Positions 22,190 through 35,334 of a DNA stretch of 64,000 nt are shown here, piece after piece (position 1 is the stretch's first letter; each line of letters opens with the position of its first letter). Below the pieces are notes generated by a model, which was not told where the DNA came from, did no database searches, and saw only the letters and a list, made by a program, of their open reading frames with translations. The translations under genes and the position numbers were made by a program. This DNA comes from an uncultured Thermoleophilia bacterium (lineage in GTDB: Bacteria > Actinomycetota > Thermoleophilia > UBA2241): the NCBI GenBank assembly GCA_963702475.1, contig CAVPCT010000002.1, positions 96,001 to 160,000 on the forward strand, in the 5' to 3' direction.

Positions 22190-23611
22190 TCAGCCGCCGT
22201 CCGCCGCCGGCCTGCGCCGCCGCGACAACCAGATGCCCACGAGGAGCGTCGCCGCGCCGCCGCCGGCCACGATGGCGGTGTACGTCACCCGCGACTGTCC
22301 CGTCGGGATGACGGTGAGGAACAGCACCAGGCCGAGGGTCACGAAGGTCTCTGCGAGCACCACGGCCAGCCACGCGCCGAAGCGCCCTCCCGGCACGCGG
22401 TACGGGCGCCGCACGTCGGGGAACTTGCGGCGCAGCACCAGCAGCGCCGGGAACATCAGCGTGTACGGCGCCATGAACGCCACCGACGAGAGCGAGAAGA
22501 TCGTCCAGAAGATCTGCTCGTTGCCGCCGAACAGGGCGTAGTTGAGCACGGTGAGCACGGTGGCCAGCGCCGCCATCAGGACGAACGCGTAGTCGGGCGT
22601 CCCGAAGCGGCGGTTGATGTGTCCGAACACGCGCGGGGCCGAGCGGTCCAGGCCGGTGACGTTGATGCTGTGGTTGGCGCCGGTGGACCAGGTGATCATC
22701 GTCCCGACGAAGCTGAACAGCAGCAGGACGATGACGACGTCGTAGGCGACCGAGGCGGCCGCGCCCGTGCCGAGCACGAGCCGGAACGAGAGGTCCATGG
22801 CGTCGGCGATGCCGCTGACGATGGAGAGCTCGTCGAGCGGCAGCGCCGCCAGGATGCCGGCCATGCCCAGGATCTGCGTGCCGACGATGGCGATGCCGGC
22901 GATGAGGATCATGCGGGGGATGTCGCCACGCGGGTCCTTCACGTGACCGCCAAGCGAGCTCATGACCTCCCAGCCGCAGAAGTTGGAGAGGATCACGGCC
23001 ACCGCGGCGAGGCCGATGCCGGTGCCGGGCCAGAGCTGCGAGGTGGTCAGCGGATTGGCGACGCCGTGACGGGCGGCGTAGACGAGGCCGACGAGCGCCG
23101 CGGCGGCCAGGACGGCGATCTTGGCCGCCGCGCTGGCGTTGTTCACCCAGGTGGTGAGGCGCAGCGGCAGGATGCCGACGGCGACCACGAGCCACAGGAG
23201 GCCGATGACGATGAGCTCCTCCCAGGTGCGGCTCATCGAGGGCCAGAAAGCGGTACGCATCGTGCCGGCGAAGATGACGAACACCGCCGGCGCCCAGTAG
23301 GCCAGATTGACCCAGTAGAACCACGCGCACACGCCGCCCACGCGCTCGCCGTAGGCCTCGCGGATCCACACGTACATGCCGCCTTCTTGCGGCCAGGCGC
23401 TGCCGAGCTCCGCGGTGATGAAGCCGTACGGCGCGTAGAACACCACGGCGAGGATCGTGAAGACGGCGATACCGCGCCAGCCGCTGGCGGCCACGGTGGC
23501 GACCGAGTCCAGCGTGATCATCGCCGACACCGAGAACAGCACCATGGGAGCGAGCCCCAGGATACGGCTGCGCGAAGGCTCGACTGCGCTGAGGCGTGCG
23601 TCGGTGCTCAT
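22190..23611 (-). CDS. APC-family amino acid/polyamine permease (AguD/GadC-like antiporter)
   Basis: TAELGSAWPQEGGMYVWIREAYG, YWVN, RRPYRVPGG; 12 TM helices. Confidence 0.88.
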   Translation of the reverse strand: MSTDARLSAVEPSRSRILGLAPMVLFSVSAMITLDSVATVAASGWRGIAVFTILAVVFYAPYGFITAELGSAWPQEGGMYVWIREAYGERVGGVCAWFYWVNLAYWAPAVFVIFAGTMRTAFWPSMSRTWEELIVIGLLWLVVAVGILPLRLTTWVNNASAAAKIAVLAAAALVGLVYAARHGVANPLTTSQLWPGTGIGLAAVAVILSNFCGWEVMSSLGGHVKDPRGDIPRMILIAGIAIVGTQILGMAGILAALPLDELSIVSGIADAMDLSFRLVLGTGAAASVAYDVVIVLLLFSFVGTMITWSTGANHSINVTGLDRSAPRVFGHINRRFGTPDYAFVLMAALATVLTVLNYALFGGNEQIFWTIFSLSSVAFMAPYTLMFPALLVLRRKFPDVRRPYRVPGGRFGAWLAVVLAETFVTLGLVLFLTVIPTGQSRVTYTAIVAGGGAATLLVGIWLSRRRRPAADGG

Positions 23612-23718: not shown

Positions 23719-24995
23719 TCAGCGGGCCGTGACGACCGTCGCCATGGCGTCGGCGACGGCCAGGACGCGGGCGCGGCGGCTGAGGCGCGTCTGGGCGGCT
23801 GCGACGGCCGCGTCGACGGAGTCGAACGCGGCCAGACCGAGCGGCTCGAGGACGCCCGGGTCGGCCGCGCCCACGACGGCGACGCGGAAGCGTTCGAGCA
23901 CGCGCGCGACGACGAAGGCCCGCTGCCCTCCCGGGCCGAGCGGCTCGCGCAGCCCGCGCGCGATCAGCGCGGCCGGCGAGCCGGCGGCGCCCAGCACGCG
24001 CGCGAAGTTCTGCTCGCCGGGACCCGCGCCCGTCCCGTCGGGCAGACCCGCGCACAGCACGAGCAGGCCGCCGTCGGCCAGGGAGGGCCTGGCGGCGAGG
24101 CCCACGTACGTCGCCGCCCGGCTCGCCTGGTAGAGGTTGTCGCTCTTGGGCGCGTGCACGCCGGCCACCACGACGTCGAAGGGCTCCTCGACCCGGTAGA
24201 GCCAGGCGCCGGCGTGCGTCGCGGCCAGCGACGCCTGCGCCGCGGCGGGGTCGCCGGCGGCGACGGCGGACACGCCGCCGCCCGCGGCCGTGACGACGTT
24301 GACCGCCCAGCGCAGCGGCGTGCGCGCGGCGACGTCGCGCAACGTCCTCTGGAAGGGGTTCCCCTCAAGCCGGCAGAGGGTCACGCCGGGCTCGCTGATG
24401 AACGCCGGCCGGTGCGTCCAGGCGATCGTCTCGTGCCCGGCGCACCCGATAGCCACGCCCTTGACCCCCCGGAGAAGCCGGCGTAGAGGTGCGGCTCCAC
24501 GACGCCGACGGTGACGGCTAGGTCCGCGTCGGCGACACGCCGCGCGACGCGGACGGGCGCGCCGAGCGTCGTGGAGCCGAGATCCGCGCAGGGCGTCTCG
24601 AGGCCCTGCGCGTCTTCTACGCGCACGCGGGTCGCGACGCCGGCGCCGGCAAGGGCGGCGCGCTCTTCCTCGCTCGTGGTGGCGTGCAGGCCACAGCCGA
24701 CGACCACGGTGACGCCCGACTGCGGTACACCGGCCGCCGCCAGCTCGCACAGCAGCTGCTCCAGGATCGAGGGGCTCGGGCAGGGCCGCGAGGCGTCGGG
24801 GATTGTGACAGCCACCCGGCGGGCGCCGCGCGCCAGCTCCCGCAGGCGCGGCGCCCCGGCCGGGGCGGCGAGTGCGCCGGCCACCTCGGCCTCGAGGTCC
24901 GGTACAGCCGCTGTCGCGGCCGGCGGGGCGAACGCGTCGGCGCGTGGCACTGGCAGACGCGCCGCGCCGCAGAAGACCCAGGGAGTCTCGCTCAC
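23719..24995 (-). CDS. larA: LarA-family nickel-pincer (NPN)-dependent racemase/epimerase; frameshift in G-run at about 24465-24470
   Basis: IPDASRP, GCGLH, VEPHLYAGFSGG|VKGVAIG, NLYQASRA; restoring one G joins the two ORFs. Confidence 0.8.
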
Positions 24996-25274
24996 GAGGG
25001 CGCCTCCGCGTTGCCGGCACCGCTCGCGCTGTCCTCACCGGAGCCGCCCCCCTGGTCCTTCGTGTCGTCTCCGCGCCACCACACCGCCAACATGACGATC
25101 ACGCCGCCGATGGGGATGAGCGACGCCACGAAGGCGGCGACCAGCCAGTTCAAGCAGGTCGCCGCCCGTCTTCTTCGCGCACAGGTACCCCAGGTACAGG
25201 CAGATGAGCAGTTGCGGCCCCCAGGCGTAGAAGTACCACCCGGCCTTGCCCACAGACCACAGGACCCAGCTCAT
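24992..25274 (-). CDS. Small membrane protein (about 94 aa), frameshift near 25152
   Basis: MSWVLWSVGKAGWYFYAWGPQLLICLYLGYLC...WLVAAFVASLIPIGGVIVMLAVWWR; overlaps the larA start. Confidence 0.55.
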
Positions 25275-25279
25275 CGGCC

Positions 25280-27346
25280 TCAGCCGTACACGGTGAGCAG
25301 CGAGTCCACCGTCGCCAGAAGATGGCTCGCCGCCGCGGGCGGGTTCAGGATGCGAGCCTGATCGGCGAACGGCAGCACGTGCTGCGTGAGCCAGCCCTCC
25401 TCCACGTACGGCTGCTCGGCGACGCAGGATCCGTCGGCGAGGCGCTGCACCGGCTGACGCTCCTCGACCCAGCGGCTCACGTCGCGGCTGTACCAGACCG
25501 TGGCCGTCTTGGGTGCGTAGCTGGCCGACGGCGGTACTCCCTCTCGTCGGTAGAGGTCGAGCTCCAGGTCCTGCCGCGGCGCGAACGTCTCGTCGAGCAG
25601 CTGTGCGCTCCGCGTGGTCGCGATGCGGAACATGCGCCTGCCGCCGGCCGTGCGGCACCAGCACACGTAGTACCACTCGCCGCGCTCGTGGATCATCAGG
25701 TATGGCTCCACCACCCGTTCGGACTGCCCCGCGGTGCCTTCTTTCCAGTACGCGATGCGCAGCAGGTTCCGGCCGGCGATGGCCGCGTTCACGCTGTCGA
25801 ACACGCCGGCGGCCCCGGGGGGCAGGTCTCCGGCCACGATGGTGGGGCCGGTGTCGCGCGCGCTCCTTATTCTGCGGCGCGCGCCGTCAAGGGTGGCCCG
25901 GCTCGCCGACGGGAGCTGTCCGCCCACGAGGTCGATAGCCAGCAGCAGCGCGTCGGCCTGCAGGGGGGAGAGCCGGGCGGGGCGCGACAGGGTGGGGCCC
26001 TCCACGTCGCACTCCACGTGCAGCTTGCCGCGGCCGGTGAACTCGGCGTACAGGACCATGCCGCCCACGTGTCCCACGGTGTTGAGCAGGCGGATGTCCT
26101 CGCGGAGGTCCTTGAGCGAGACGTCCAGCGCGGCGCACACGTCCGCGACCTGCAGGTCGGCCTCGTCCCTGCCGCAGCTCGTGAGGAGGTAGGAGGCGAG
26201 GGTGCTGAGGCGCGTGAAGCGGTCGACCTCCACGTGCCAGTCTCCGGCGGTCCTGCGCCGGCGCCTGCCGCCGCGCGCGGCTGCGGGAGCCGCGGCGGGG
26301 GCGTTCGCCACGTCCGGGACCGGAGACGCGGTCAGCCTGCGCAGCGCGACGAGGCGCTCGCGGAGCCGGTCGCGCAGCGCCGGTGGATCGAGCAGCTCTG
26401 CGGCCTCGGCCAAGCCGAGCACCCACGACAGCATGCGCCGCTCGTCGGCGTAGTCGGTGACGAAGACGATGGACCCGTCGTCCTGCGCCTCCACAGCGCC
26501 GCAGTGCCGCCAGTGCGCCTCCACCCACCAGGCCATGGACGGGCCGACGCGCACGCGCGCCGTGCCGACGACGGGTCCCAGACGCCAGGCGGGGCGGTCC
26601 TGGTACGCCTCCAGGTCGAAGTCCGCGGGCCGGGCGAAGTCGTGGAGCTTCTTGGAGGCGTGCACCACGCGGGAGTGGATGCGCGAGAGACGGAAGGTGC
26701 GCACCGCGTCGCGCTCGTGGCAGCGGCCGATGAGGTACCACTCGCCGGCGACCACCTGGAGCCCGTACGGGTCCACCGTGCGTTCGCGCTCCTCGTCGCG
26801 CTGGATGGTGTAGTACGTGAATCTGACGGTCTTGCGGTCGTCCACAGCGGCCTGCAGTCTGGGCAGCAGCGAGGGCGGCTCGTCGGCCTCCGGGACGACG
26901 GCAAGCGCCGGCGCGGCGGTCTCGGTGAGGACCTCGGGGCGTCCCTGCGTGAGGCTCAGCAGGGCGAGACGCAGGGGCTGCGAGTAGGCGAAGCCGTCCT
27001 GCAACACGGCGTAGCAGGCGGCCAGGGCGGTGAGCTCGTCGGCGCTGAACTCGACCCGCGGCAGGTAGTAGGCGTCGCCGGGCAGACTGTAGAGGTCCAC
27101 GCCGTCGTCCCCGGTCTCGGCGTCGACACGGATGCCGATCTCCCTGAGCTCGGCCCTGTCTTCGCTGAAGCGTCGCTTGAAGGCCTCGTCCGTCATGCCC
27201 GGGTACCCTTCGACGTTCATGCGGATCTGCGCGGCGCTGACGCGCTGGCCCGGCCGCGAGAGCAGGAACGTGACCAGGGACAGCCTGCGGAGGTTGGGCT
27301 CGTGGTCCTTGGGTTGGGCGGGCTCGCGGGCCTGCGAAGGGCTCAT
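25280..27346 (-). CDS. pafBC: Single-chain PafBC fusion (tandem wHTH-WYL-WCX DNA-damage regulator)
   Basis: PafB half: AFKRRFSEDRAELREIGI, RTVDPYGL, WYLIG, RTFRLSRI. PafC half: RLSPLQADALLLA, RVVEPY, WYYVCWC, RMFRI. Confidence 0.85.
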   Translation of the reverse strand: MSPSQAREPAQPKDHEPNLRRLSLVTFLLSRPGQRVSAAQIRMNVEGYPGMTDEAFKRRFSEDRAELREIGIRVDAETGDDGVDLYSLPGDAYYLPRVEFSADELTALAACYAVLQDGFAYSQPLRLALLSLTQGRPEVLTETAAPALAVVPEADEPPSLLPRLQAAVDDRKTVRFTYYTIQRDEERERTVDPYGLQVVAGEWYLIGRCHERDAVRTFRLSRIHSRVVHASKKLHDFARPADFDLEAYQDRPAWRLGPVVGTARVRVGPSMAWWVEAHWRHCGAVEAQDDGSIVFVTDYADERRMLSWVLGLAEAAELLDPPALRDRLRERLVALRRLTASPVPDVANAPAAAPAAARGGRRRRRTAGDWHVEVDRFTRLSTLASYLLTSCGRDEADLQVADVCAALDVSLKDLREDIRLLNTVGHVGGMVLYAEFTGRGKLHVECDVEGPTLSRPARLSPLQADALLLAIDLVGGQLPSASRATLDGARRRIRSARDTGPTIVAGDLPPGAAGVFDSVNAAIAGRNLLRIAYWKEGTAGQSERVVEPYLMIHERGEWYYVCWCRTAGGRRMFRIATTRSAQLLDETFAPRQDLELDLYRREGVPPSASYAPKTATVWYSRDVSRWVEERQPVQRLADGSCVAEQPYVEEGWLTQHVLPFADQARILNPPAAASHLLATVDSLLTVYG

Positions 27347-27529
27347 CGGCGGGGCTCCGGCGGTCGTTGACGAGGCGCGGGGGTCCGGCATCGGGCCCCG
27401 CGCCTCATGCTACCGCAGACGCCGCCGGGGGTCAGCGGGCGTGACAGGACGGCCGGGCCGGCGAGGCGCGTACGCCGCCCCGCCCCGGCCCGTCACCAGC
27501 TTCGGACAGCCGTCAGACCGCTACCGCCG

Positions 27530-28990
27530 TCAGACCGTCGCCTCTCGCGCCGCCGCGGCGATGATGGCGTCGAACTCGGCGCCGAGGTCGGCGGGGAACT
27601 CCGGCGCCGGAGCCGCCAGGATCTCGGCGACCCTCTCCTGCGCTTTCTCCGTCGTGCTCTTGCCGCCGGCGCTCTTCCAGGCCTCGTGGGTGCCGGTCTC
27701 CCCAAGCTTCGCCTGCCAGAGCTCGCGCACGTGGGCGCGCGTGTGGTTGTCGAACAGGTAGTTGCCGCTGAACCCCATCTTCTTGATGAGGTCGACGGCC
27801 AGCGTCTCGTCGCTCACCTCGATGCCGCGCAGGATGCGCTTCACCATGCCGAGGATCTCGTCGTCCACCACCATGTTCTCGAGGCAGAGGATGCGGGATC
27901 CGTCGAGCAGCCCGGTCCCGAAGGTCACGTCGGCGCCGTTGGCGTAGGCCATGAACATGGCCAGGGCGTTCTCGTAGGCGCTCTGGATGCCGGGCTCCTT
28001 GGCCGTCGTCGCGCCGGCGCCGTACCAGGCCGGCACGCCGTAGAAGCCGGCCATGTGGCCCTGGCAGGCGCGCAGCAGCATGGCCTCGGGCGAATTGCTC
28101 GCGTAAGCGCCGGAGCTCATGTACATGGCCGTGGGGCCGCCGCCGTGGATGACCCTGGCGCCGGGGTGGGCCAGCTGCACCAGGACGGCCCCGCTGACGA
28201 ACTCGGCGTTGTTCACCACGGCCGAGCCCGCGATGGTCACCGGTCCCGTCGCGCCCAGGATCGGCATGGGGTAGAAGCTCACGGGGATGCCGGCCTCGGC
28301 CAGCACCAGCGCGAGGTCCATGCCGAAGCGCTCCTGGTGCAATGGGCTCACCGTGCAGATGATGCTCGTGAACATGGGGCGGCGCTTCAGTTCCTCGGCG
28401 CCGCCGGCCAGGGCCTCGGCCATACGGATCAGGCTGCGTGCCTCCCAGTCCTCCTTGATGCTGACGACGATGTTGTGCTTCTCCGAGTTGCGCACGCAGG
28501 CGTCGAACTCGTGCAGCACGCGCGTCTCCGGCGGGCAGTCCTGGGCGCTGACGACGGCGCTGGTGGCACTCACGTTCTCCAGCGCCTGCACGACCCTTGC
28601 GCAGTCGGCGAGGTCCTGCTTCTGCGAGATGCGGACCGCGCCGGTCACAGGGTCGCGGTACGACACGCCGCAGCCGTCGGAGCTGATGTAGACGTGCTCG
28701 CCGTCGAGGGGCAGGTCGTACTCGGGGTTGCGGGCGCCCAGGGTGAACTGGTGCGGTACCGTGCTCATGGCACGTTCGACCACCCCAGCCGGGACCTTGG
28801 CCACTGTGGTCTCGCGGTCCACGGTCGCGCCGTTGGCTTCGAGGATGTCGAGAGCTCGCTGAGAGTGGTACTTCACGCCCACGGTCTCGATGACGTCGAG
28901 TGTGGCCTCGTGGATCCGACGCACGTCCTCGGGGGAGAGCAGCTCGAGCTTGACGCGCTGTCCGACGTAGCAGCTGTCGGCGTATGTCAT
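27530..28990 (-). CDS. MttB-superfamily (trimethylamine:corrinoid methyltransferase-like), non-pyrrolysine, copy 1
   Basis: RRIHEATLDVIETVGV, GATGPVTIAG, AKEPGIQSAYE, ENMVVDDEI, LAVDLIK; no in-frame TAG. Confidence 0.9.
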   Translation of the reverse strand: MTYADSCYVGQRVKLELLSPEDVRRIHEATLDVIETVGVKYHSQRALDILEANGATVDRETTVAKVPAGVVERAMSTVPHQFTLGARNPEYDLPLDGEHVYISSDGCGVSYRDPVTGAVRISQKQDLADCARVVQALENVSATSAVVSAQDCPPETRVLHEFDACVRNSEKHNIVVSIKEDWEARSLIRMAEALAGGAEELKRRPMFTSIICTVSPLHQERFGMDLALVLAEAGIPVSFYPMPILGATGPVTIAGSAVVNNAEFVSGAVLVQLAHPGARVIHGGGPTAMYMSSGAYASNSPEAMLLRACQGHMAGFYGVPAWYGAGATTAKEPGIQSAYENALAMFMAYANGADVTFGTGLLDGSRILCLENMVVDDEILGMVKRILRGIEVSDETLAVDLIKKMGFSGNYLFDNHTRAHVRELWQAKLGETGTHEAWKSAGGKSTTEKAQERVAEILAAPAPEFPADLGAEFDAIIAAAAREATV

Positions 28991-29065
28991 CGGGTGACTC
29001 CTTTCGCTCGTGCAGGCTGCTCCGCCGTGCGCATCGCGCAACGCCGTGAGCTACGCCCGCTCGTT

Positions 29066-30523
29066 TCAGAAGCGGCCGGACTCGACCGCGGCGATGATGT
29101 CGTCGAGCTCGCGCCCGAGGTCTCCGGGGAGCTCGGGCGCAGGGGCGGCCATCAGGGCGTCGGCGACGGCCCGCGCCTTGTCCTCCAGGCGCGGGCTGCC
29201 GGCGTGCTGCCAGCCCTCGTAGGTCCCGGTCTCGCCCAGGCGAGCCTGCCACAGCTCGCGCACGTGGGCGCGTGTGTGCTTCTCGCTGAGATACGAGCCG
29301 TCGAACCCCATCTTCTTGATGAGGTCGACGGCCAGCTCCTCGCGCTCGACGGTCACGCCGCGCAGCAGGCGGGTGACCACGCCGAACACCTCGTCGGCGA
29401 TGACGAGCTCCTCCAGGCTCATCTGCTGGACGCTGTCGAGCAGGCCGGCGCCGAAGAGGAAGTCCGCGCCGGCCGCCATCTCGAGCACGAGGCCGAGGGT
29501 GTTCTCGTAGGCGGATTGGGCGTCCGGCTGTTTGGCCTTTGTCCCGCCCCAGCCGAGGCCGGCGGGGAGGCCCCAGGAGCGCGCCATCTGGGCTTGCACG
29601 GCGCGCAGCAGCAGGGCCTCCGGCACGTTGGCGAAGTAGGCGCCGGTGCGCATGTAGAGCGCCGTCGGGCCGCCGCCGTGGACGAGCCTGGCGCCGGGGC
29701 AGGCGAGCTGGATGGCGGTGACGGCGGCCAGGATCTCGGCCGCCCCCAGCACCGCCGTGCCCGCCGGCGTCACCGGCGCGGTCGCCCCCAGGATCGGCAT
29801 CGGGTACAGCATCATGGGGATGCCGGCCTCGCCGAGCTCGAACGCCAGTTCCATGCCGCACCGCTCCATGTGGAGCGGGCTCACGGTGCAGAGGATCACG
29901 GAGAAGGTCGGGCGGGCGTGGAGCTGCGCCTTCCCGCCCGCCACGGCTTCGGCCATGCGGATGAGCGGCCTGGCCTCCGTCGCGTCCTTGATGCTCACGA
30001 CGATGGAGTGCTTCGTCGAAGCGCGCATGCAGGCATCGAACTCGTGCAGCACGCGGCTCTCCTCCGGCGTGTCCTGGGCCGAGACGAGGGCCGACGTGGC
30101 CGACAGGTTGGGCAGGCCGTCCACCACGCGCGCGGCCCGGTAGACGTCGTCCTTGGTGCTCAGGCGCACCGAACCGTCGGCATCGCGGACCATGGTCGCG
30201 CAGCCGTCGGAGGTGAGGTAGACATGCTCGCCGTCGACCGGCAGGTCGAGAGCGGGCTCGCGGCCGCCCAGGGTGAAGCCGGGCGGCAGGGTGGCGAGCG
30301 CCTCTTCTACTGCACTCGCCGGGATGCGGGCCACTGTCGTGTTGCGGTCCACCGTGGCCCCGTGCTCCTCGAGCACGTCCAGCGCCCTGTCGTTGTGGAC
30401 CATGACGCCGGTCTCGGCGAGCACGCCGAGCGCGGCTTCGTGGATGCGCTCCACATCGGTGTCGGCGAGGATCTTGAGCGGTCGCCGCCGGCCGACGTAG
30501 CGCGCGTCGGCGTGCTTGGTCAT
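29066..30523 (-). CDS. MttB-superfamily methyltransferase, non-pyrrolysine, copy 2
   Basis: ERIHEAALGVLAETGV, GATAPVTPAG, AKQPDAQSAYE, GAGLLDS, LSEKHT; no in-frame TAG. Confidence 0.9.
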   Translation of the reverse strand: MTKHADARYVGRRRPLKILADTDVERIHEAALGVLAETGVMVHNDRALDVLEEHGATVDRNTTVARIPASAVEEALATLPPGFTLGGREPALDLPVDGEHVYLTSDGCATMVRDADGSVRLSTKDDVYRAARVVDGLPNLSATSALVSAQDTPEESRVLHEFDACMRASTKHSIVVSIKDATEARPLIRMAEAVAGGKAQLHARPTFSVILCTVSPLHMERCGMELAFELGEAGIPMMLYPMPILGATAPVTPAGTAVLGAAEILAAVTAIQLACPGARLVHGGGPTALYMRTGAYFANVPEALLLRAVQAQMARSWGLPAGLGWGGTKAKQPDAQSAYENTLGLVLEMAAGADFLFGAGLLDSVQQMSLEELVIADEVFGVVTRLLRGVTVEREELAVDLIKKMGFDGSYLSEKHTRAHVRELWQARLGETGTYEGWQHAGSPRLEDKARAVADALMAAPAPELPGDLGRELDDIIAAVESGRF

Positions 30524-31596
30524 GAGGTTCCTTTCGGGCCGCCGAGTCGTGCGTAGTCGACCTCCACGTACGGCGAGGTGACTGCGCGCACCAGGGCCTC
30601 GTAATCGACGGTGAAACGGACCTCGTCGCGGGGGTGCAGCGGCTCCGGCGTGATCAGGATGCAGACGTCGCTCGTCGCCCCGGCGAGCCAGGCGCCGGGG
30701 ATGAGCGGGCGCAGGCCGCCGGGCTCCATGTCGCGGCGGCCCAGGGCGACCATGCTGTACCAGGCGTCGTCATCGGGAAGCGAGACGTCCGGCACGTGGC
30801 CGAAGGCGTCGAGACCGCCGGGGCCCTCCGGCGCCGGCGGCTTGCGGAAGCACTCGAGCACTGAGGCGGTCAGCACGGGGTCCGTGCGGCTGAGCCCCGT
30901 GATGGCGCAGCCGCTCACGAAGTCGTACCCGTACATCGGGCCGCCGCCGCTGCGGACCTCCGTGGCGAAGCGTGGCTCGTAGCCGTCGAGACACTGGACG
31001 GCGCAGGTGCCGCCGAGGCTGAGGACCGGCTCGGCGGCGCAGTACGTCGCGCAGGCGGCGAGCACGTCCTCGGCCTGCCGGAACAGCTCCTGCGACGGCA
31101 GCTGGCCGGAGAGGCAGGCGAAGTTGACGCTGACGCCCGCGAGCCTGATGCCGGGCAGGGCGGCGAGCTGTGCGGCGACCGTCGGCGCGTCCTCGGGGAG
31201 GACGCCCTCGCGGCGGTCGCCGAGGTCCACCGTCAGCAGGACGCCGACGGGGGCGCCGGGGGCGTGCTCTCCGAGCACGCGGGCGGCGCTGGGGTCGCAG
31301 AGCAGGACGCGGTCGGCTGTGTGAGCCGCCGCCGCCAGCTCGTGGTGCTGGGGCGTGCGGATCAGCGTGCGCGGGCCGAGGCCGGCGCCGGCGAGCCGCC
31401 GCAGCGCCGGCAGGCGGCTGTCGGCCAGCCCGGCGCAGCCGCCGGTGAGCATGGTCTCGCCGACGAGCGGCTCGCCGTCCACGCATTTGGTGACGCCGAC
31501 GAGGACGATGCCGTGGCCGAGCAGCACGGCGGCGAGCCGCCGGGTGGCCTCGGCCACGGCGTCCAGGTCGATGGTGAGTCGTGGGCAGGCTCCCAT
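30520..31596 (-). CDS. Fold-type III PLP amino acid racemase (ornithine racemase/YhfX-like)
   Basis: PRLTIDL, VGVTKC (PLP Lys), LADSR, VDLGDRREG, NFAC, ALGRRD, GATSD; ATGA overlap with the downstream mttB. Confidence 0.85.
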   Translation of the reverse strand: MGACPRLTIDLDAVAEATRRLAAVLLGHGIVLVGVTKCVDGEPLVGETMLTGGCAGLADSRLPALRRLAGAGLGPRTLIRTPQHHELAAAAHTADRVLLCDPSAARVLGEHAPGAPVGVLLTVDLGDRREGVLPEDAPTVAAQLAALPGIRLAGVSVNFACLSGQLPSQELFRQAEDVLAACATYCAAEPVLSLGGTCAVQCLDGYEPRFATEVRSGGGPMYGYDFVSGCAITGLSRTDPVLTASVLECFRKPPAPEGPGGLDAFGHVPDVSLPDDDAWYSMVALGRRDMEPGGLRPLIPGAWLAGATSDVCILITPEPLHPRDEVRFTVDYEALVRAVTSPYVEVDYARLGGPKGTS

Positions 31597-31599
31597 GGG

Positions 31600-31915
31600 C
31601 TCAGCACCCGGCGGGCCGGCCCCGGGCCTCCGCCGGGAGGCCGTGAACGGAGAAGCGTGACAAGTCCCCACCTCGTGGTCGCGTGACTGATGACGCCGCT
31701 CCACGACGGCCGTGAGCCGGACGTCGTGGTGCGCGCGCGGTGCGACGCCGCGAGACCCGTGCCGGAACACGGACGGCGGCGGGAGGGACTTCTAAAAGTC
31801 GTGGAAGCGGCCGCCAGTGAACGCGGTGAGGCGACGGTCGTGGGGCTTGACGGCAAGCACTCGGGACACGGGTCTCCAAGCCTCGGCGGGTCGAAGCACG
31901 GCGAGTATACTTCGG
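31600..31915. other. Structured divergent intergenic region, candidate cis-regulatory RNA
   Basis: Perfect 10-bp inverted repeat 31752-31761/31867-31876 enclosing nested hairpins; further 8-bp and 7-bp stems; palindromic AGTATACT at 31904-31911. Confidence 0.4.
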
Positions 31916-31954
31916 CGGTCCGCGCCCGGACAAACGACGTGAGATGGGGGCGAC

Positions 31955-33361
31955 ATGGGGTTCTGTGATGACCACCTGACCCTGCGGGACGGCCGTCTGT
32001 ACCTCGACGGCGCCGACCTCGCGGCGCTCGCCGCGAGCCACGAGACCCCGTTCTTCGTGGTCTCGGAGCGGTGTCTGCGCGAGCGCGCGGCCGCCGTGGT
32101 CGCGGCGTTCGCCGCACGGCACCGGGACACCCGGGTCTTCTTCGCCAGCAAGGCCTGCTCCAACCTGTGGGTCCTCGGCGTGGTGCGCGACGCCGGCCTC
32201 GGCGTTGAGGTCAATTCGGGCGGCGAGCTGGAGAAGACGCTGCTCTCCGGCTTCACGCCGGACCGCATCATCTTCAACGGCGTGGCGAAGACGCGCGACG
32301 AGATCGTCCTCGCCGTACGGCGCGGCGTGCGCGCTCTGCTCGTGGACTCGCTCTGCGAGCTCGACCGCATCGGCGCGGTGGCCGCGGAGCTCGGCCGCGC
32401 GGCCACGGTGGCGCCGCGCATCGACGTGCACGTGCCGGCGCTCACGCACCCCGGTCTGGAGACGGCCTTCGGCGGCAAGGCGGGCATCGACCGCGACGAC
32501 GCCGTCGAGGCGTTCAGGCGCGCCGCCGCCGACCCGTGGCTGGACCCGGCCGGCCTGCACCTGCACATCGGCTCGCAGATCTCGAGCGTCGCGCCGTACG
32601 TCGAGGCGATGGCCACAACGCTCGACCTCGTCGACGAGGTCGAGCGCGCCGCCGGCCTGCACCTGCGGTTCCTCGACGCCGGCGGCGGGTTCGCGGTGCC
32701 GTACGACGAGCGGCCGCAACATCCGCCTGCACAGCCCGATCCGCCGCCCGGTGGGCCGCCTGCGGCCCACTACTTCGCCTGCGACCTCACGTTCGACGAC
32801 TACGCCGAGACGGTGTGCGGGCAGCTGCGCCGGCGCCGCCCCGACCTCGAGCTCTTCGTAGAGCCCGGACGGTCCATCGCGGCGCCGGCCGGCGTGCTGG
32901 TCACGCGCGTCGAGAGCGAGAAGACCAAGCGCGTACGTGACGCGCGCGGCCGCGTGACCGGTGAGGTGCGCTGGCTCACCGTCGACGCCGGCTTCAACAC
33001 GCTGCTCGAGCACACCAACTACGGGTGGTACTACCGCAGCCGGGTGGCCGGCCGGGCCGGCGAGGCGCACGATGCGCCCTTCCGGCTCGCCGGTCCGCTC
33101 TGCGACGGCGGCGACGTGTTCGCCGGCGACAACGGCACACCGTTCCGCCGCTTGCCGGCGTCCACGACGGTTGGGGACGCCGTCGTGTTCCGCGACACCG
33201 GCGCCTACACGCTGGAGATGATGAACGACTACAATGCACGGCCGCGGGCGGCCGCCTATGCGGTCACCGCCGCCGGCGAAGTGATCGAGATCCGGCGACG
33301 GGAGACCGTCGCCGACCTCGTGCGCGCGGACCGGAACCCCGAGCCCGGCCGAGGAGGCTGA
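31955..33361 (+). CDS. Fold-type III PLP decarboxylase (LysA family), most like D-ornithine/D-lysine decarboxylase DokD
   Basis: FFASKAC, VNSGGEL, FNGVAK, THPGLETAFGGKAG, HIGSQ, EPGR, EKTKRVRD...WLTVDAGF, AHDAPFRLAGPLCDGGD, GAY, YNARPR. Confidence 0.8.
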   Translation: MGFCDDHLTLRDGRLYLDGADLAALAASHETPFFVVSERCLRERAAAVVAAFAARHRDTRVFFASKACSNLWVLGVVRDAGLGVEVNSGGELEKTLLSGFTPDRIIFNGVAKTRDEIVLAVRRGVRALLVDSLCELDRIGAVAAELGRAATVAPRIDVHVPALTHPGLETAFGGKAGIDRDDAVEAFRRAAADPWLDPAGLHLHIGSQISSVAPYVEAMATTLDLVDEVERAAGLHLRFLDAGGGFAVPYDERPQHPPAQPDPPPGGPPAAHYFACDLTFDDYAETVCGQLRRRRPDLELFVEPGRSIAAPAGVLVTRVESEKTKRVRDARGRVTGEVRWLTVDAGFNTLLEHTNYGWYYRSRVAGRAGEAHDAPFRLAGPLCDGGDVFAGDNGTPFRRLPASTTVGDAVVFRDTGAYTLEMMNDYNARPRAAAYAVTAAGEVIEIRRRETVADLVRADRNPEPGRGG

Positions 33362-33401
33362 CTGCGGTGGACGCGCGGCGGAGCGGCACCGCCTTGCGGT
33401 T

Positions 33402-33473: not shown

Positions 33474-34640
33474 TCACACGATCCACTGCGGCCGGACCCG
33501 GGCGAACATGTACTTCGTCGTGGAGTACCCGAGTTTCCAGAACACGTGGTAGTGGTCGGTGGTGTGCGCGTCGATGACCTTCTGCCCGGCGTTGTTGGTG
33601 CCGACGACCATGGCGACGTGGTCCCAGACGCCGTCACCGGACCAGTCGTAGTACACGGCGTCGCCCTTGCCGAGGTCGCTGATGCCGGGCACATAGTCCG
33701 TGCGCCTGCCGTTCCAGAACCCCATCTGCTTGCCCACGTTGATCCAGCTCAGGCTGTACTGGTCGTCCGAGGGTGACGACGTGCCCCTGTTGTCGTACCA
33801 CCAGCCGGTGGACCAGGCGGCCGGCGTCGTCGGCATGCCGCCGGCGCGCGCGCTCTGGGACACGAAGTTCGCGCAGTCCGCACCGAAGCGGACGACATTG
33901 GGGTTGTACGAGAGCGCGTAGCGGTCGGCGTAGGCTGCGGCGGCGGCGCGGTTGTACACGATGGTGTCCATGTAGGCGCGGCCACCGGTGCGGCCACTCT
34001 CGACACGGATGCGGGACTGGTCCCGGCGGATGCGTGCCCTGTCGGAGCGGGTGGAGTCGTCAGGCGGGGCCACCGAGCGCTCGAGCCTCCGCGCCACCTC
34101 GAGCGAGACGGCCGCGGGCGCTCCGGCGTCCTCGAGGTAGGCGGGGGCCATGACGTCGTTGTAGGCGTCGTCGGTGACCCGCCAGCCGCGCTGCTCGAGC
34201 GAGAGAGAGACGATGTGGTCGACGCCGTAGGCCTCCACGTCGGCCAGACTCTCGCGTGAATGCCACTGCACGGTGGTGATGACGTGTGCCGAGACGGTCG
34301 CCGAGGCGCCGTCGGGGGCCAGCGATACGCCGTCCACGGTCACCGCCGTCTGGACGGAGTCGATGAGATGCCCGAGCTTGCCGGCGTTCATCCCCATCCC
34401 GCGGGCGATGAGCCGCTCCCGAGCGGCGAGGCGGGAGCCGGGTGCGACCAGGAGCGCAAGAGGGGCGCCGGGGTCGGGGGCGGTGACGGCTGCGGCTCGG
34501 GCCTCGAGATAGGCTGTGGCGACCGCCTCGGGGCCGGCGTTCGTTGCGGGCGGCCTCGCCGCGGCGGAGCCTGTGGCGGCGACCGAGAGCGCCATGGAGG
34601 CTGCCGCCACCATGAGGAGGAACCGACGAGGGTGCTTCAT
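33474..34640 (-). CDS. Secreted Amidase_6-domain (NlpC/P60-like) putative peptidoglycan hydrolase
   Basis: Signal peptide; YNRAAAAAYADRYA, DCANFVSQ, GDAVYYDW, WDHVAMV, IDAHT. Confidence 0.85.
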   Translation of the reverse strand: MKHPRRFLLMVAAASMALSVAATGSAAARPPATNAGPEAVATAYLEARAAAVTAPDPGAPLALLVAPGSRLAARERLIARGMGMNAGKLGHLIDSVQTAVTVDGVSLAPDGASATVSAHVITTVQWHSRESLADVEAYGVDHIVSLSLEQRGWRVTDDAYNDVMAPAYLEDAGAPAAVSLEVARRLERSVAPPDDSTRSDRARIRRDQSRIRVESGRTGGRAYMDTIVYNRAAAAAYADRYALSYNPNVVRFGADCANFVSQSARAGGMPTTPAAWSTGWWYDNRGTSSPSDDQYSLSWINVGKQMGFWNGRRTDYVPGISDLGKGDAVYYDWSGDGVWDHVAMVVGTNNAGQKVIDAHTTDHYHVFWKLGYSTTKYMFARVRPQWIV

Positions 34641-35204
34641 TGTGACCCCTTTCGTTCTGATTGTGGACCCGCTGTGATGGTGTGGATGAGCCAGCCTCCG
34701 GCCGTCGTCCCGACCCTCCCCAAGGTGAAGAACAGCGTCGCTGCGCCCGGTGGCACCGGGCTCTCCGGACGTCCCGCCGCGCGCACGCGAGCGACCACGG
34801 TGACGGTCGCCGGGTCCGGCGCGGTGAGCACCCTGGCGGAGCGGAACGACAGCGCCCGCACGCTGCTGCAGCTGCGCCCGCGTCCAGACGCGCTGTGCGG
34901 CGAACAGACCCGCCGCCTCCCACAGGCGCCCGGCGTCCACGAGGTCGCAGAAGAGCTTGACGGTGCGTACCGCTTCGAGCCGTGCCTGCCCGTCGAGGTG
35001 CCAGGATGCCGCGGCAGCGGACTCCTCCGGGCTTGCGTACGGCGTTGCCGCCACACCGGGCAGGATCGCGGCGCCTGCCTGGGCCGGCGCGGCAGGCGCG
35101 GCCGGACTGGGGGCGTGGCGCCGCGCTCCGGGGACCGCGGCGAAGAGGCCGCCGAACGCTGCGGCGAGGACGATGAGGAAGATGACGAGGCGGCGGCTGA
35201 CCAT
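34637..35204 (-). CDS. Membrane-anchored or secreted hypothetical protein, frameshift near 34865
   Basis: MVSRRLVIFLIVLAAAFGGLFAA...; the second frame ends TLFFTLGRVGTTAGGWLIHTIT; ATGA overlap with the amidase gene. Confidence 0.55.
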
Positions 35205-35334
35205 GGACCCATGCTCGCCGCGTGCCCCCGTGAGCCTCAAGGATGACCCAGGCGATCCGTGGATGACGTTGAGCCGCCGTCGGCGGTGACGTTCCACCGG
35301 AGCCCGGCGATCAGGCGGCCTCCCGGCCCGCGCG

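Follow-up and report, generated by a model that had tools for sequence, protein, structure and literature searches.

A racemase-coupled pair of MttB-type methyltransferase genes in a Thermoleophilia genome suggests an undescribed demethylation of lysine- or ornithine-type compounds

A 64,000-nucleotide stretch of DNA from an uncultured Thermoleophilia bacterium (hereafter the window) carries two tandem genes for MttB-type corrinoid methyltransferases, designated MttB1 and MttB2, a gene for a racemase resembling the ornithine racemase OrnR, and a divergently transcribed gene for a decarboxylase related to DokD, the D-ornithine/D-lysine decarboxylase of Salmonella. Gene content and sequence comparison suggest that this locus may take part in an undescribed demethylation of compounds of the lysine or ornithine type. 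Our preferred reading, held with slightly less than even confidence, is that it would serve the catabolism of a basic amino acid N-methylated on its side chain in methylotrophic, pyrrolysine (Pyl)-using Thermoleophilia. The window has a G+C content of 72% and is located on contig C2 of a 4.3-Mb metagenome-assembled genome (MAG) with a completeness of 93.8% and a contamination of 6.5%.

Gene order was established from a screen of G+C content at third codon positions (GC3) and from Pfam and NCBIfam profile scans under translation table 11; for all four genes, the profile matches and open reading frames (ORFs) agreed with the positions given in an earlier reading of this DNA (hereafter the original prediction). 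The reverse strand encodes MttB1 (27530-29041, 503 aa; PF06253, 303.8 bits), its tandem paralogue MttB2 (29066-30523, 485 aa; PF06253, 290.2 bits), and a fold-III pyridoxal 5'-phosphate (PLP) racemase of the OrnR type (30520-31596, 358 aa; PF01168, 66.6 bits). Across an intergenic region of 358 nt (31597-31954), and on the opposite strand, as had been proposed, lies the DokD-like fold-III PLP decarboxylase (31955-33361, 468 aa; PF02784 and PF00278). The longest ORF of the racemase extends over 30520-31770 on the reverse strand, and alignments with homologues begin at residue 63 of this ORF, which agrees with the predicted start at 31596. The overlap between the racemase and the adjacent mttB gene could be read directly, the ATGA at 30523-30520 combining the racemase stop with the MttB2 start and being preceded by GAAAGGA. 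The racemase is thus translationally coupled to MttB2, and MttB1 follows after a spacing of 24 nt. The sole sigma-70-like match in the 13.6 kb scanned falls in the racemase/decarboxylase intergenic region (31933-31904, reverse strand); it is a consensus match only, and shuffled sequence gave a mean of 0.3 such matches. A search for sequence data sets matching 27400-33400 listed zero RNA sets, and the best DNA sets contained at most 0.47 of its words.

The arrangement recurs in relatives, which are MAGs of Thermoleophilia/Actinomycetes from bog, palsa, fen, permafrost, and lake (sediment) sites, according to the titles of their records. A decarboxylase, a racemase, and at least one MttB were found together in 15 of 30 loci in a first set and in 18 of 30 loci in a second. 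The remainder of the first set comprised two contigs that were too short, two loci typical of a second DokD-like paralogue (the C4:252k type, see below), and 11 loci from other phyla, in which zero MttB or racemase neighbours were detected at E<=1e-10. In the second set, two contigs were too short, five loci were of the second-paralogue type, and five belonged to a sister clade without such neighbours. As seven second-set loci repeat contigs of the first, the MttB-racemase-decarboxylase arrangement occurs on 26 distinct contigs, with decarboxylase identities of 53-67%, so that the linkage anticipated in the original prediction is indeed kept in relatives.

Within a 151-genome sample of the class, a racemase at the level of an orthologue (at least 58% identity) was limited to the family of the window, where it was present in 20 of the 25 other genomes. 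Two small, 98% complete genomes (G002 and G014) yielded zero racemase matches, and their best matches to the decarboxylase (34% identity) and MttB1 (31-32%) were such that orthologues of these genes were not found. In these genomes, the genes flanking the block, which encode a WYL-domain protein and a PP-loop ATPase, are separated by 1.7 and 1.5 kb, respectively, against 10.2 kb in the window. MttB1, MttB2, the racemase, and the decarboxylase, possibly with a neighbouring amidase gene, therefore behave as an insertion/deletion block. Modular replacement was also observed: three loci (L067, L068, and G080) have the full arrangement with the racemase slot held by a different OrnR-type paralogue, 31-35% identical to the window racemase and closer (37-42%) to enterobacterial OrnR or to the second racemase of the genome. 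A racemase always accompanies the MttB1-type gene, and this MttB-racemase tie is the constant part of the locus.

To our knowledge, the MttB superfamily has thousands of members and few known substrates, namely trimethylamine, glycine betaine, proline betaine, carnitine, gamma-butyrobetaine, and choline-related compounds. MttB1 and MttB2, which are 59.7% identical, cover positions 22-494 of the 500 positions of PF06253 (gathering cut-off, 25 bits), and MttB2 orthologues in relatives align over residues 1-485. Since both reading frames are open in translation table 11, with zero internal stops, the two proteins belong to the non-Pyl members of the superfamily. Both stay below the 525-bit cut-off of TIGR02369, the model for Pyl-dependent trimethylamine MttB (430.6 bits for MttB1 and 386.8 for MttB2), and the Pyl position of Methanosarcina MttB aligns with an alanine in MttB1. 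Scores against the Methanosarcina trimethylamine enzyme (227 bits for MttB1 and 193 for MttB2) are close to those against the glycine-betaine enzyme MtgB (221 and 189 bits), and by these comparisons the window proteins appear about equally distant from both and fit no characterised subfamily. In MtgB, according to the available text of PMC13080624, glycine betaine is bound by Y97 and F356 through cation-pi contacts and by R312 and H348 through its carboxylate, R312 being also kept in MtcB, MtpB, MthB, and MtyB. Following MtgB numbering, which was checked against chain 9yce (offset of 2), Y97, R312, H348, and F356 align with C124, W339, G375, and S382 of MttB1, and Y97, F356, R312, and H348 align with C, V, G, and G of MttB2. 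As all four substrate-binding residues are replaced, R312 included, MttB1 is predicted not to be a glycine-betaine enzyme.

A link between these proteins and basic amino acids emerged from a paralogue tree built with 51 of the 53 near-full-length MttB homologues of the genome (the two shortest were left out), in which MttB1 and MttB2 are sisters and their next relative is encoded at C4:222094-223560. This third gene belongs to an operon (C4:217364-225543, locus L140) composed of two MttB genes, a degenerate MttB, a lysine 2,3-aminomutase, RACo, and two EamA-type transporters. The radical-SAM (S-adenosylmethionine) aminomutase reached 565.8 bits on the lysine 2,3-aminomutase equivalog TIGR03820, above its cut-off of 525.4. 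In a sample of 31 genomes of the family, an MttB of the C4:222094 type (at least 71% identity) was present in 22, and in 16 of these the aminomutase was located on the same contig at a distance of 1.4-3 kb; the other six comprise five fragmented assemblies and one genome (G038) without an aminomutase match at E<=1e-100. In five genomes (G056, G122, G044, G080, and G020), an OrnR-type racemase also stands beside that aminomutase. The subclade of MttB1 and MttB2 is thus linked, in gene order, to enzymes of lysine and ornithine metabolism. As a side observation, six relatives (G122, G159, G163, G104, G161, and G157, five of them of one genus) have an aminomutase match with one in-frame TAG, which might be explained by Pyl in a protein other than a methylamine methyltransferase or by read-through of a short upstream ORF.

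The two window proteins are part of a large expansion, with 75 matches to PF06253 in the genome, of which 53 are near full length and 17 have one in-frame TAG. More than half of the near-full-length homologues (32 of 53) are encoded on a single 501-kb contig (C4), especially between C4:2366 and C4:234911. With 43 matches to B12-binding domains, RACo, and a PylS scoring 314.6 bits (cut-off, 178), the genome has what is needed to use methyl-corrinoids. A B12-binding domain lies within 5 kb of 15 of the 53 MttB homologues, and none was found in that range for the other 38. Only three of the 51 paralogues in the tree keep the R312/H348 pair, so that many further MttB substrates must exist. Besides the window, C4:59973-67000 (L046 5947-13002, reverse strand) contains a second operon mixing a fold-III decarboxylase with methyltransferases, in the order non-Pyl MtmB homologue, corrinoid protein, LysA-like decarboxylase, Pyl-MttB with an in-frame TAG, and non-Pyl MttB. 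This operon is flanked by two SBP_bac_5 proteins, and its decarboxylase scores 293 bits on the lysA model and has the altered motifs MYH-GG and CNAAD.

The racemase was identified as an OrnR-type enzyme by its catalytic residues. Lys37 and Cys161 are invariant columns in an alignment with four enterobacterial OrnR orthologues (30-31% identity) and match OrnR positions Lys36 and Cys164, the catalytic pair that, in the available text of PMC13397332, defines OrnR-type racemases, whereas alanine racemase has a Lys/Tyr pair. Overall identity to enterobacterial OrnR is 28-31%, and the score on the racem_Orr model NF040742 (134.7 bits) is below both its cut-off of 480 and the 351-352 bits of the enterobacterial orthologues; a search of PDB sequences with the racemase gave zero matches at E<=1e-5. 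Because a second OrnR homologue of the same genome (C2:306943-307977) is much closer to racem_Orr, at 331.7 bits, the window racemase is best described as a divergent branch of the basic-amino-acid racemase family. That second homologue is found near an ornithine carbamoyltransferase gene, with one 442-aa ORF in between.

The divergence of the racemase, the lack of fit of MttB1 and MttB2 to any characterised subfamily, and the scarcity of the R312/H348 pair among the non-Pyl MttBs of the genome are all features expected if the MttB-racemase core acted on another methylated amino compound whose alpha-amino group is free, or if the MttB homologues catalysed some other corrinoid-dependent methyl transfer; the decarboxylase would then be a general, loosely associated enzyme of D-amino-acid or polyamine metabolism. 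We consider this rather unlikely, as the identifiable partners of the MttB subclade all belong to lysine or ornithine families, namely OrnR-type racemases, DokD-type decarboxylases, and a lysine 2,3-aminomutase above its cut-off.

Several comparisons relate the decarboxylase to DokD. The segments quoted in the original prediction (FFASKAC, THPGLETAFGGKAG, EKTK...WLTVDAG, AHDAPFRLAGPLCDGGD, and YNARPR) were all retrieved in its translation, and its claim that the protein resembles DokD more than LysA was borne out by PDB sequences and profiles alike. The best PDB matches were six entries with the DokD sequence (315-319 bits, 6n2h reaching 319), against 204 bits for the best LysA; one entry with the DokD sequence, 10li, was deposited as 'diaminopimelate decarboxylase'. 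NCBIfam scores were 365.5 bits on the DokD model NF052544, below its cut-off of 700, and 334.2 bits on the lysA model TIGR01048, above its cut-off of 297.9. Two enterobacterial DokD proteins, with 873-899 bits on the DokD model, also reach 289-295 bits on that for lysA, so that the score of the window protein on the latter is a cross-family signal. None of the 10 DokD-like proteins that were scored, eight from other phyla and two Thermoleophilia proteins of the paralogue type (L029 and the C4 copy of the genome in L046), reached the DokD cut-off.

Phylogeny led to the same assignment. A FastTree analysis of 75 sequences, rooted on the LysA of the genome and with the Acidobacteria-rich loci L080-L126 thinned to every fourth, united nine enterobacterial DokD and 43 Thermoleophilia sequences in one bipartition (SH-like support, 0.968), with identities of 37-38% between the window protein and enterobacterial DokD. 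The enterobacterial dokD loci, 12 in number, were retrieved with a degenerate DNA pattern derived from a DokD motif; no Salmonella-type DokD was present among the 80 loci of the protein-alignment search, which were all from Thermoleophilia, Acidobacteria, and others. The window protein and DokD have in common FFASK(A/T)CS, TH..L.TAF..K.G.D, LAGPLCDGGD, and YN.RPR. The canonical LysA of the genome has KFG, and CESGD (GKHCESGD) where the window protein has GPLCDGGD, a CESGD-type motif at the catalytic Cys being probably general to LysA. Catalytic residues are kept in the PLP-Lys motif FFASK, in CDGGD, and in the Tyr of YNxRPR (Tyr430 in PDB chain numbering), the latter reportedly governing stereochemistry in DokD, as the title of one paper has it.

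Four fold-III decarboxylases are encoded in the genome: the window gene, the canonical lysA (C3:685908-687173), a second DokD-like copy (C4:251986-253290), and a divergent LysA-like copy (C4:63100-64395). With 479 bits on the lysA model and only 160 on the DokD model, the canonical lysA shows that the window gene is not the only copy of its kind in the genome. An extra LysA making lysine from meso-diaminopimelate, for instance for the synthesis of Pyl for the many Pyl-MttBs, might be considered in a genome with PylS and 17 MttB matches interrupted by one TAG, all the more so as the window protein passes the TIGR01048 cut-off. This is nevertheless very improbable indeed, since the protein clades with DokD and away from the canonical LysA and has CDGGD in place of CESGD, and since bona fide DokD itself also scores on the lysA model; tree and motif thus led us to discard a LysA paralogue that would supply Pyl synthesis. 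The idea that the window gene provides the sole route to polyamines was likewise discarded, the genome also encoding a fold-I decarboxylase of the OKR_DC_1 type (Orn/Lys/Arg); a pyruvoyl arginine decarboxylase (ArgDC) was not found in this 93.8% complete genome.

Further variation among DokD-like genes was observed. Three relatives (L019/L053, L022/L056, and L025) have two tandem DokD-like genes after the racemase operon, the second copy being of a subtype that stands alone in L064, L067, and L068. The second DokD-like gene of the genome follows, in the region C4:251986-258150 (L047 7801-14150, reverse strand), genes for an aminotransferase, a 995-aa GcvT-SHMT fusion, and a SAM methyltransferase, beside gyrB/gyrA, and its orthologues are also accompanied by a GcvT-SHMT gene in L070 and L075.

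The closest described counterpart of the racemase and decarboxylase is the OrnR-DOKDC operon of Salmonella enterica, which consists of an ornithine racemase (STM2358), a D-Orn/D-Lys decarboxylase (STM2360), and APC-type transporters, and whose physiological role is called unknown in the available text of PMC13397332. The window has in common with this operon a fold-III racemase with the Lys/Cys pair, a decarboxylase of the DokD clade, the catalytic motifs of both, and an APC permease in the vicinity. The window differs from the Salmonella operon in the low identities of the two enzymes (see above), both of which score under their NCBIfam equivalog cut-offs, in the divergent orientation of their genes, which do not form one operon, and in the distance of 8 kb to the permease. 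Unlike its enterobacterial counterparts, the window racemase is co-translated with two MttBs, and TBLASTN searches with MttB1 and MttB2 gave zero matches in all 12 enterobacterial dokD loci.

This likeness invites an alternative in which two unrelated modules are mere neighbours: an OrnR/DokD-type pair making putrescine or cadaverine from L-ornithine or L-lysine through the D-isomer, as in Salmonella, for polyamine supply or for proton-consuming decarboxylation coupled to an antiporter, and an MttB pair acting on an ordinary quaternary amine. Each part of the enterobacterial dokD operon (dokD, APC transporter, and OrnR) has a homologue in the window, and the permease resembles amino-acid/amine antiporters; G044 and the L065-type clade have the decarboxylase but no MttB beside it, MttB genes are numerous in the genome, and the wider region is syntenic by descent. 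However, the ATGA overlap ties the racemase to MttB2 and not to the decarboxylase, G134 has the MttBs and a racemase without the decarboxylase, and G044 has the decarboxylase without a racemase orthologue. Moreover, a closer OrnR homologue already stands beside ornithine carbamoyltransferase (332 versus 135 bits on racem_Orr), the fold-I decarboxylase is also available for ornithine, lysine, or arginine, and the nearest MttB paralogue, too, has a lysine enzyme as its neighbour. On balance, we regard two independent modules as unlikely, though with an appreciable chance of being right.

Among methyltransferase systems, the named non-Pyl MttB enzymes are MtgB (glycine betaine), MtcB (carnitine), MtpB (proline betaine), MtyB (gamma-butyrobetaine), and MthB. 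The window proteins share with these systems the PF06253 TIM-barrel family, the absence of a Pyl codon, and a genome encoding corrinoid proteins and RACo, but differ from the betaine enzymes in keeping none of the four MtgB substrate-binding residues and from complete systems (MtxB, MtxC, MtxA, and activator) in having no adjacent corrinoid protein or methyl-tetrahydrofolate (methyl-THF) methyltransferase. Their partners also set them apart from described MttB systems, as these are PLP enzymes acting on the alpha carbon, a pairing absent from the searched literature; nothing was found there that joins MttB with an amino-acid racemase, DokD, or trimethyllysine, or that pairs 'MttB superfamily' with Thermoleophilia. 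The racemase treated alongside MttB in one paper is a lactate racemase. The clostridial fermentation of ornithine and lysine (Orr and KamA) involves the same racemase superfamily, and the sister MttB paralogue is linked to an aminomutase of the KamA/AblA type, whereas no aminomutase, dehydrogenase, or thiolase of those pathways was detected among the window ORFs scanned.

According to our preferred reading, that of a module for a side-chain N-methylated basic amino acid, MttB1 and MttB2 would take a methyl group off the side-chain nitrogen, which is probably quaternary, and load it onto a corrinoid protein encoded in trans and present in its Co(I) form; the corrinoid-bound methyl group would then enter one-carbon metabolism. 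The OrnR-type racemase would act at the alpha carbon, turning L into D isomers and back, a reaction requiring a free amino group, and the DokD-type enzyme would convert the D-isomer into the corresponding diamine. We infer the sequence of these reactions and their direction, as well as the corrinoid partner and the nature of the substrate. A basic amino acid methylated on its side chain is proposed because the chemistry of PLP racemases and decarboxylases depends on an unblocked alpha-amino group and the known non-Pyl MttB enzymes attack a quaternary nitrogen; our best guesses are N-delta-trimethylornithine, N-epsilon-trimethyllysine, or di- or monomethylated or decarboxylated forms of these. 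New support for a basic-amino-acid substrate comes from the aminomutase-linked nearest MttB paralogue and from the other OrnR-type racemase that can occupy the same slot.

Several observations weigh against this reading. No B12-binding match was obtained in the window, the nearest being 79.5 kb from the MttB pair, and no corrinoid protein, methyl-THF methyltransferase, or activator is encoded there. With 53 MttB homologues in 4.3 Mb, some adjacency by chance to any class of gene is to be expected. Characterised non-Pyl MttBs take a single methyl group off a quaternary amine, which leaves complete demethylation unexplained. The decarboxylase, frequent as it is at this site, is separable from the MttBs: in G044, a decarboxylase (58% identity) stands beside the WYL gene, a search at E<=1e-60 gave zero MttB matches, and the racemases found are all distant; in G134, MttB1 (87%) is accompanied by a second MttB (61%) and by an OrnR-type racemase (34%), the decarboxylase not being found at the site. 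The sister decarboxylase clade (L065 type, five loci) is located among Fe-S/sulfur housekeeping genes. Finally, the whole neighbourhood, from the WYL gene to ThiF, PP-loop, and CysE, is syntenic across the family, so that the conservation of the linkage partly reflects shared descent. The central proposal of the original prediction, two modules joined into one lysine/ornithine route, is thus sustained in part: the grouping with DokD, the linkage on 26 contigs, and the links to lysine and ornithine enzymes speak for it, but the decarboxylase is less tied to the MttBs than had been assumed, as illustrated by G044 and G134.

The genes surrounding the block have a less certain relationship with it. 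On the decarboxylase side, a protein with a PF12671 Amidase_6 domain (92.9 bits; about 388 aa from an internal ATG) is encoded on the reverse strand at 33474-34640, with the signal-peptide-like sequence MKHPRRFLLMVAAASMAL beginning at 34640. The long ORF in which it lies (33474-35297, reverse strand) probably represents two genes, a small membrane or secreted protein from about 35204 followed by the Amidase_6 protein from 34640. Amidase_6 homologues adjoin the decarboxylase in most relatives, and the space that G002 and G014 leave between the flanking genes cannot accommodate an amidase gene; the gene possibly belongs to the block, and its product may have a role in the module. Beyond the amidase gene, the Pfam and NCBIfam scans identified an Rrf2 regulator, ThiF, the PP-loop ATPase, and a serine acetyltransferase (CysE) on the forward strand.

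On the MttB side, a 703-aa protein (25280-27391, reverse strand) combines, in Pfam matches, two WYL and two WCX domains with a helix-turn-helix (HTH) of the PafC type, like a fused PafB-PafC, and its TBLASTN match is split in two in several relatives. This flank marker is probably outside the module, and as a regulatory member it was ruled out, the gene being present, at 52-61% identity, in relatives without the MttB/racemase/decarboxylase block. It is preceded by a gene for a 439-aa remote homologue of LarA (23719-25038, reverse strand; 105 bits on a malate-racemase model with a cut-off of 462), in which the match to the nickel-pincer LarA family is confined to the C-terminal half (residues 191-436); at least five relatives likewise have this gene upstream of WYL. 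The APC-family permease, 8 kb away (22190-23611, reverse strand; PF13520, 167 bits), is of uncertain membership in the module, in which it may have a part. Its best NCBIfam matches are the amino-acid/amine antiporters GadC (142 bits) and TyrP (127 bits), far below the cut-offs, and its identity to the APC transporter encoded with enterobacterial dokD is 24%.

The origin of the relatives from bog, palsa, fen, permafrost, and lake sediment speaks for the preferred reading. The available text of PMC10805028 reports the expression of both Pyl and non-Pyl mttB genes by Actinobacteriota MAGs from Stordalen Mire, naming the genus Bog-752 and placing it among the most actively methylotrophic bacteria of this thawing permafrost mire; one of the relative loci identified here comes from an isolate designated 'bog_752'. 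A more specific scenario can be imagined for such sites, in which N-delta-trimethylornithine from the trimethylornithine membrane lipids of peat planctomycetes, perhaps freed by the co-varying secreted amidase, or N-epsilon-trimethyllysine from decaying protein would serve as a methyl source through a new corrinoid-dependent route, the new MttB subclade demethylating the side chain and OrnR-, DokD-, and KamA-type enzymes processing the backbone. Quite improbable in our view, this scenario would, if true, tie the turnover of lipids and protein in anoxic wetlands to bacterial methylotrophy competing with methanogens. More generally, an MttB subclade tied by gene order to lysine and ornithine chemistry offers a concrete and assayable guess at a new substrate class. 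The finding would give the OrnR/DokD pair a second, different metabolic context, and a new methyl source for these organisms would bear on the methylated nitrogen compounds that reach wetland methanogens.

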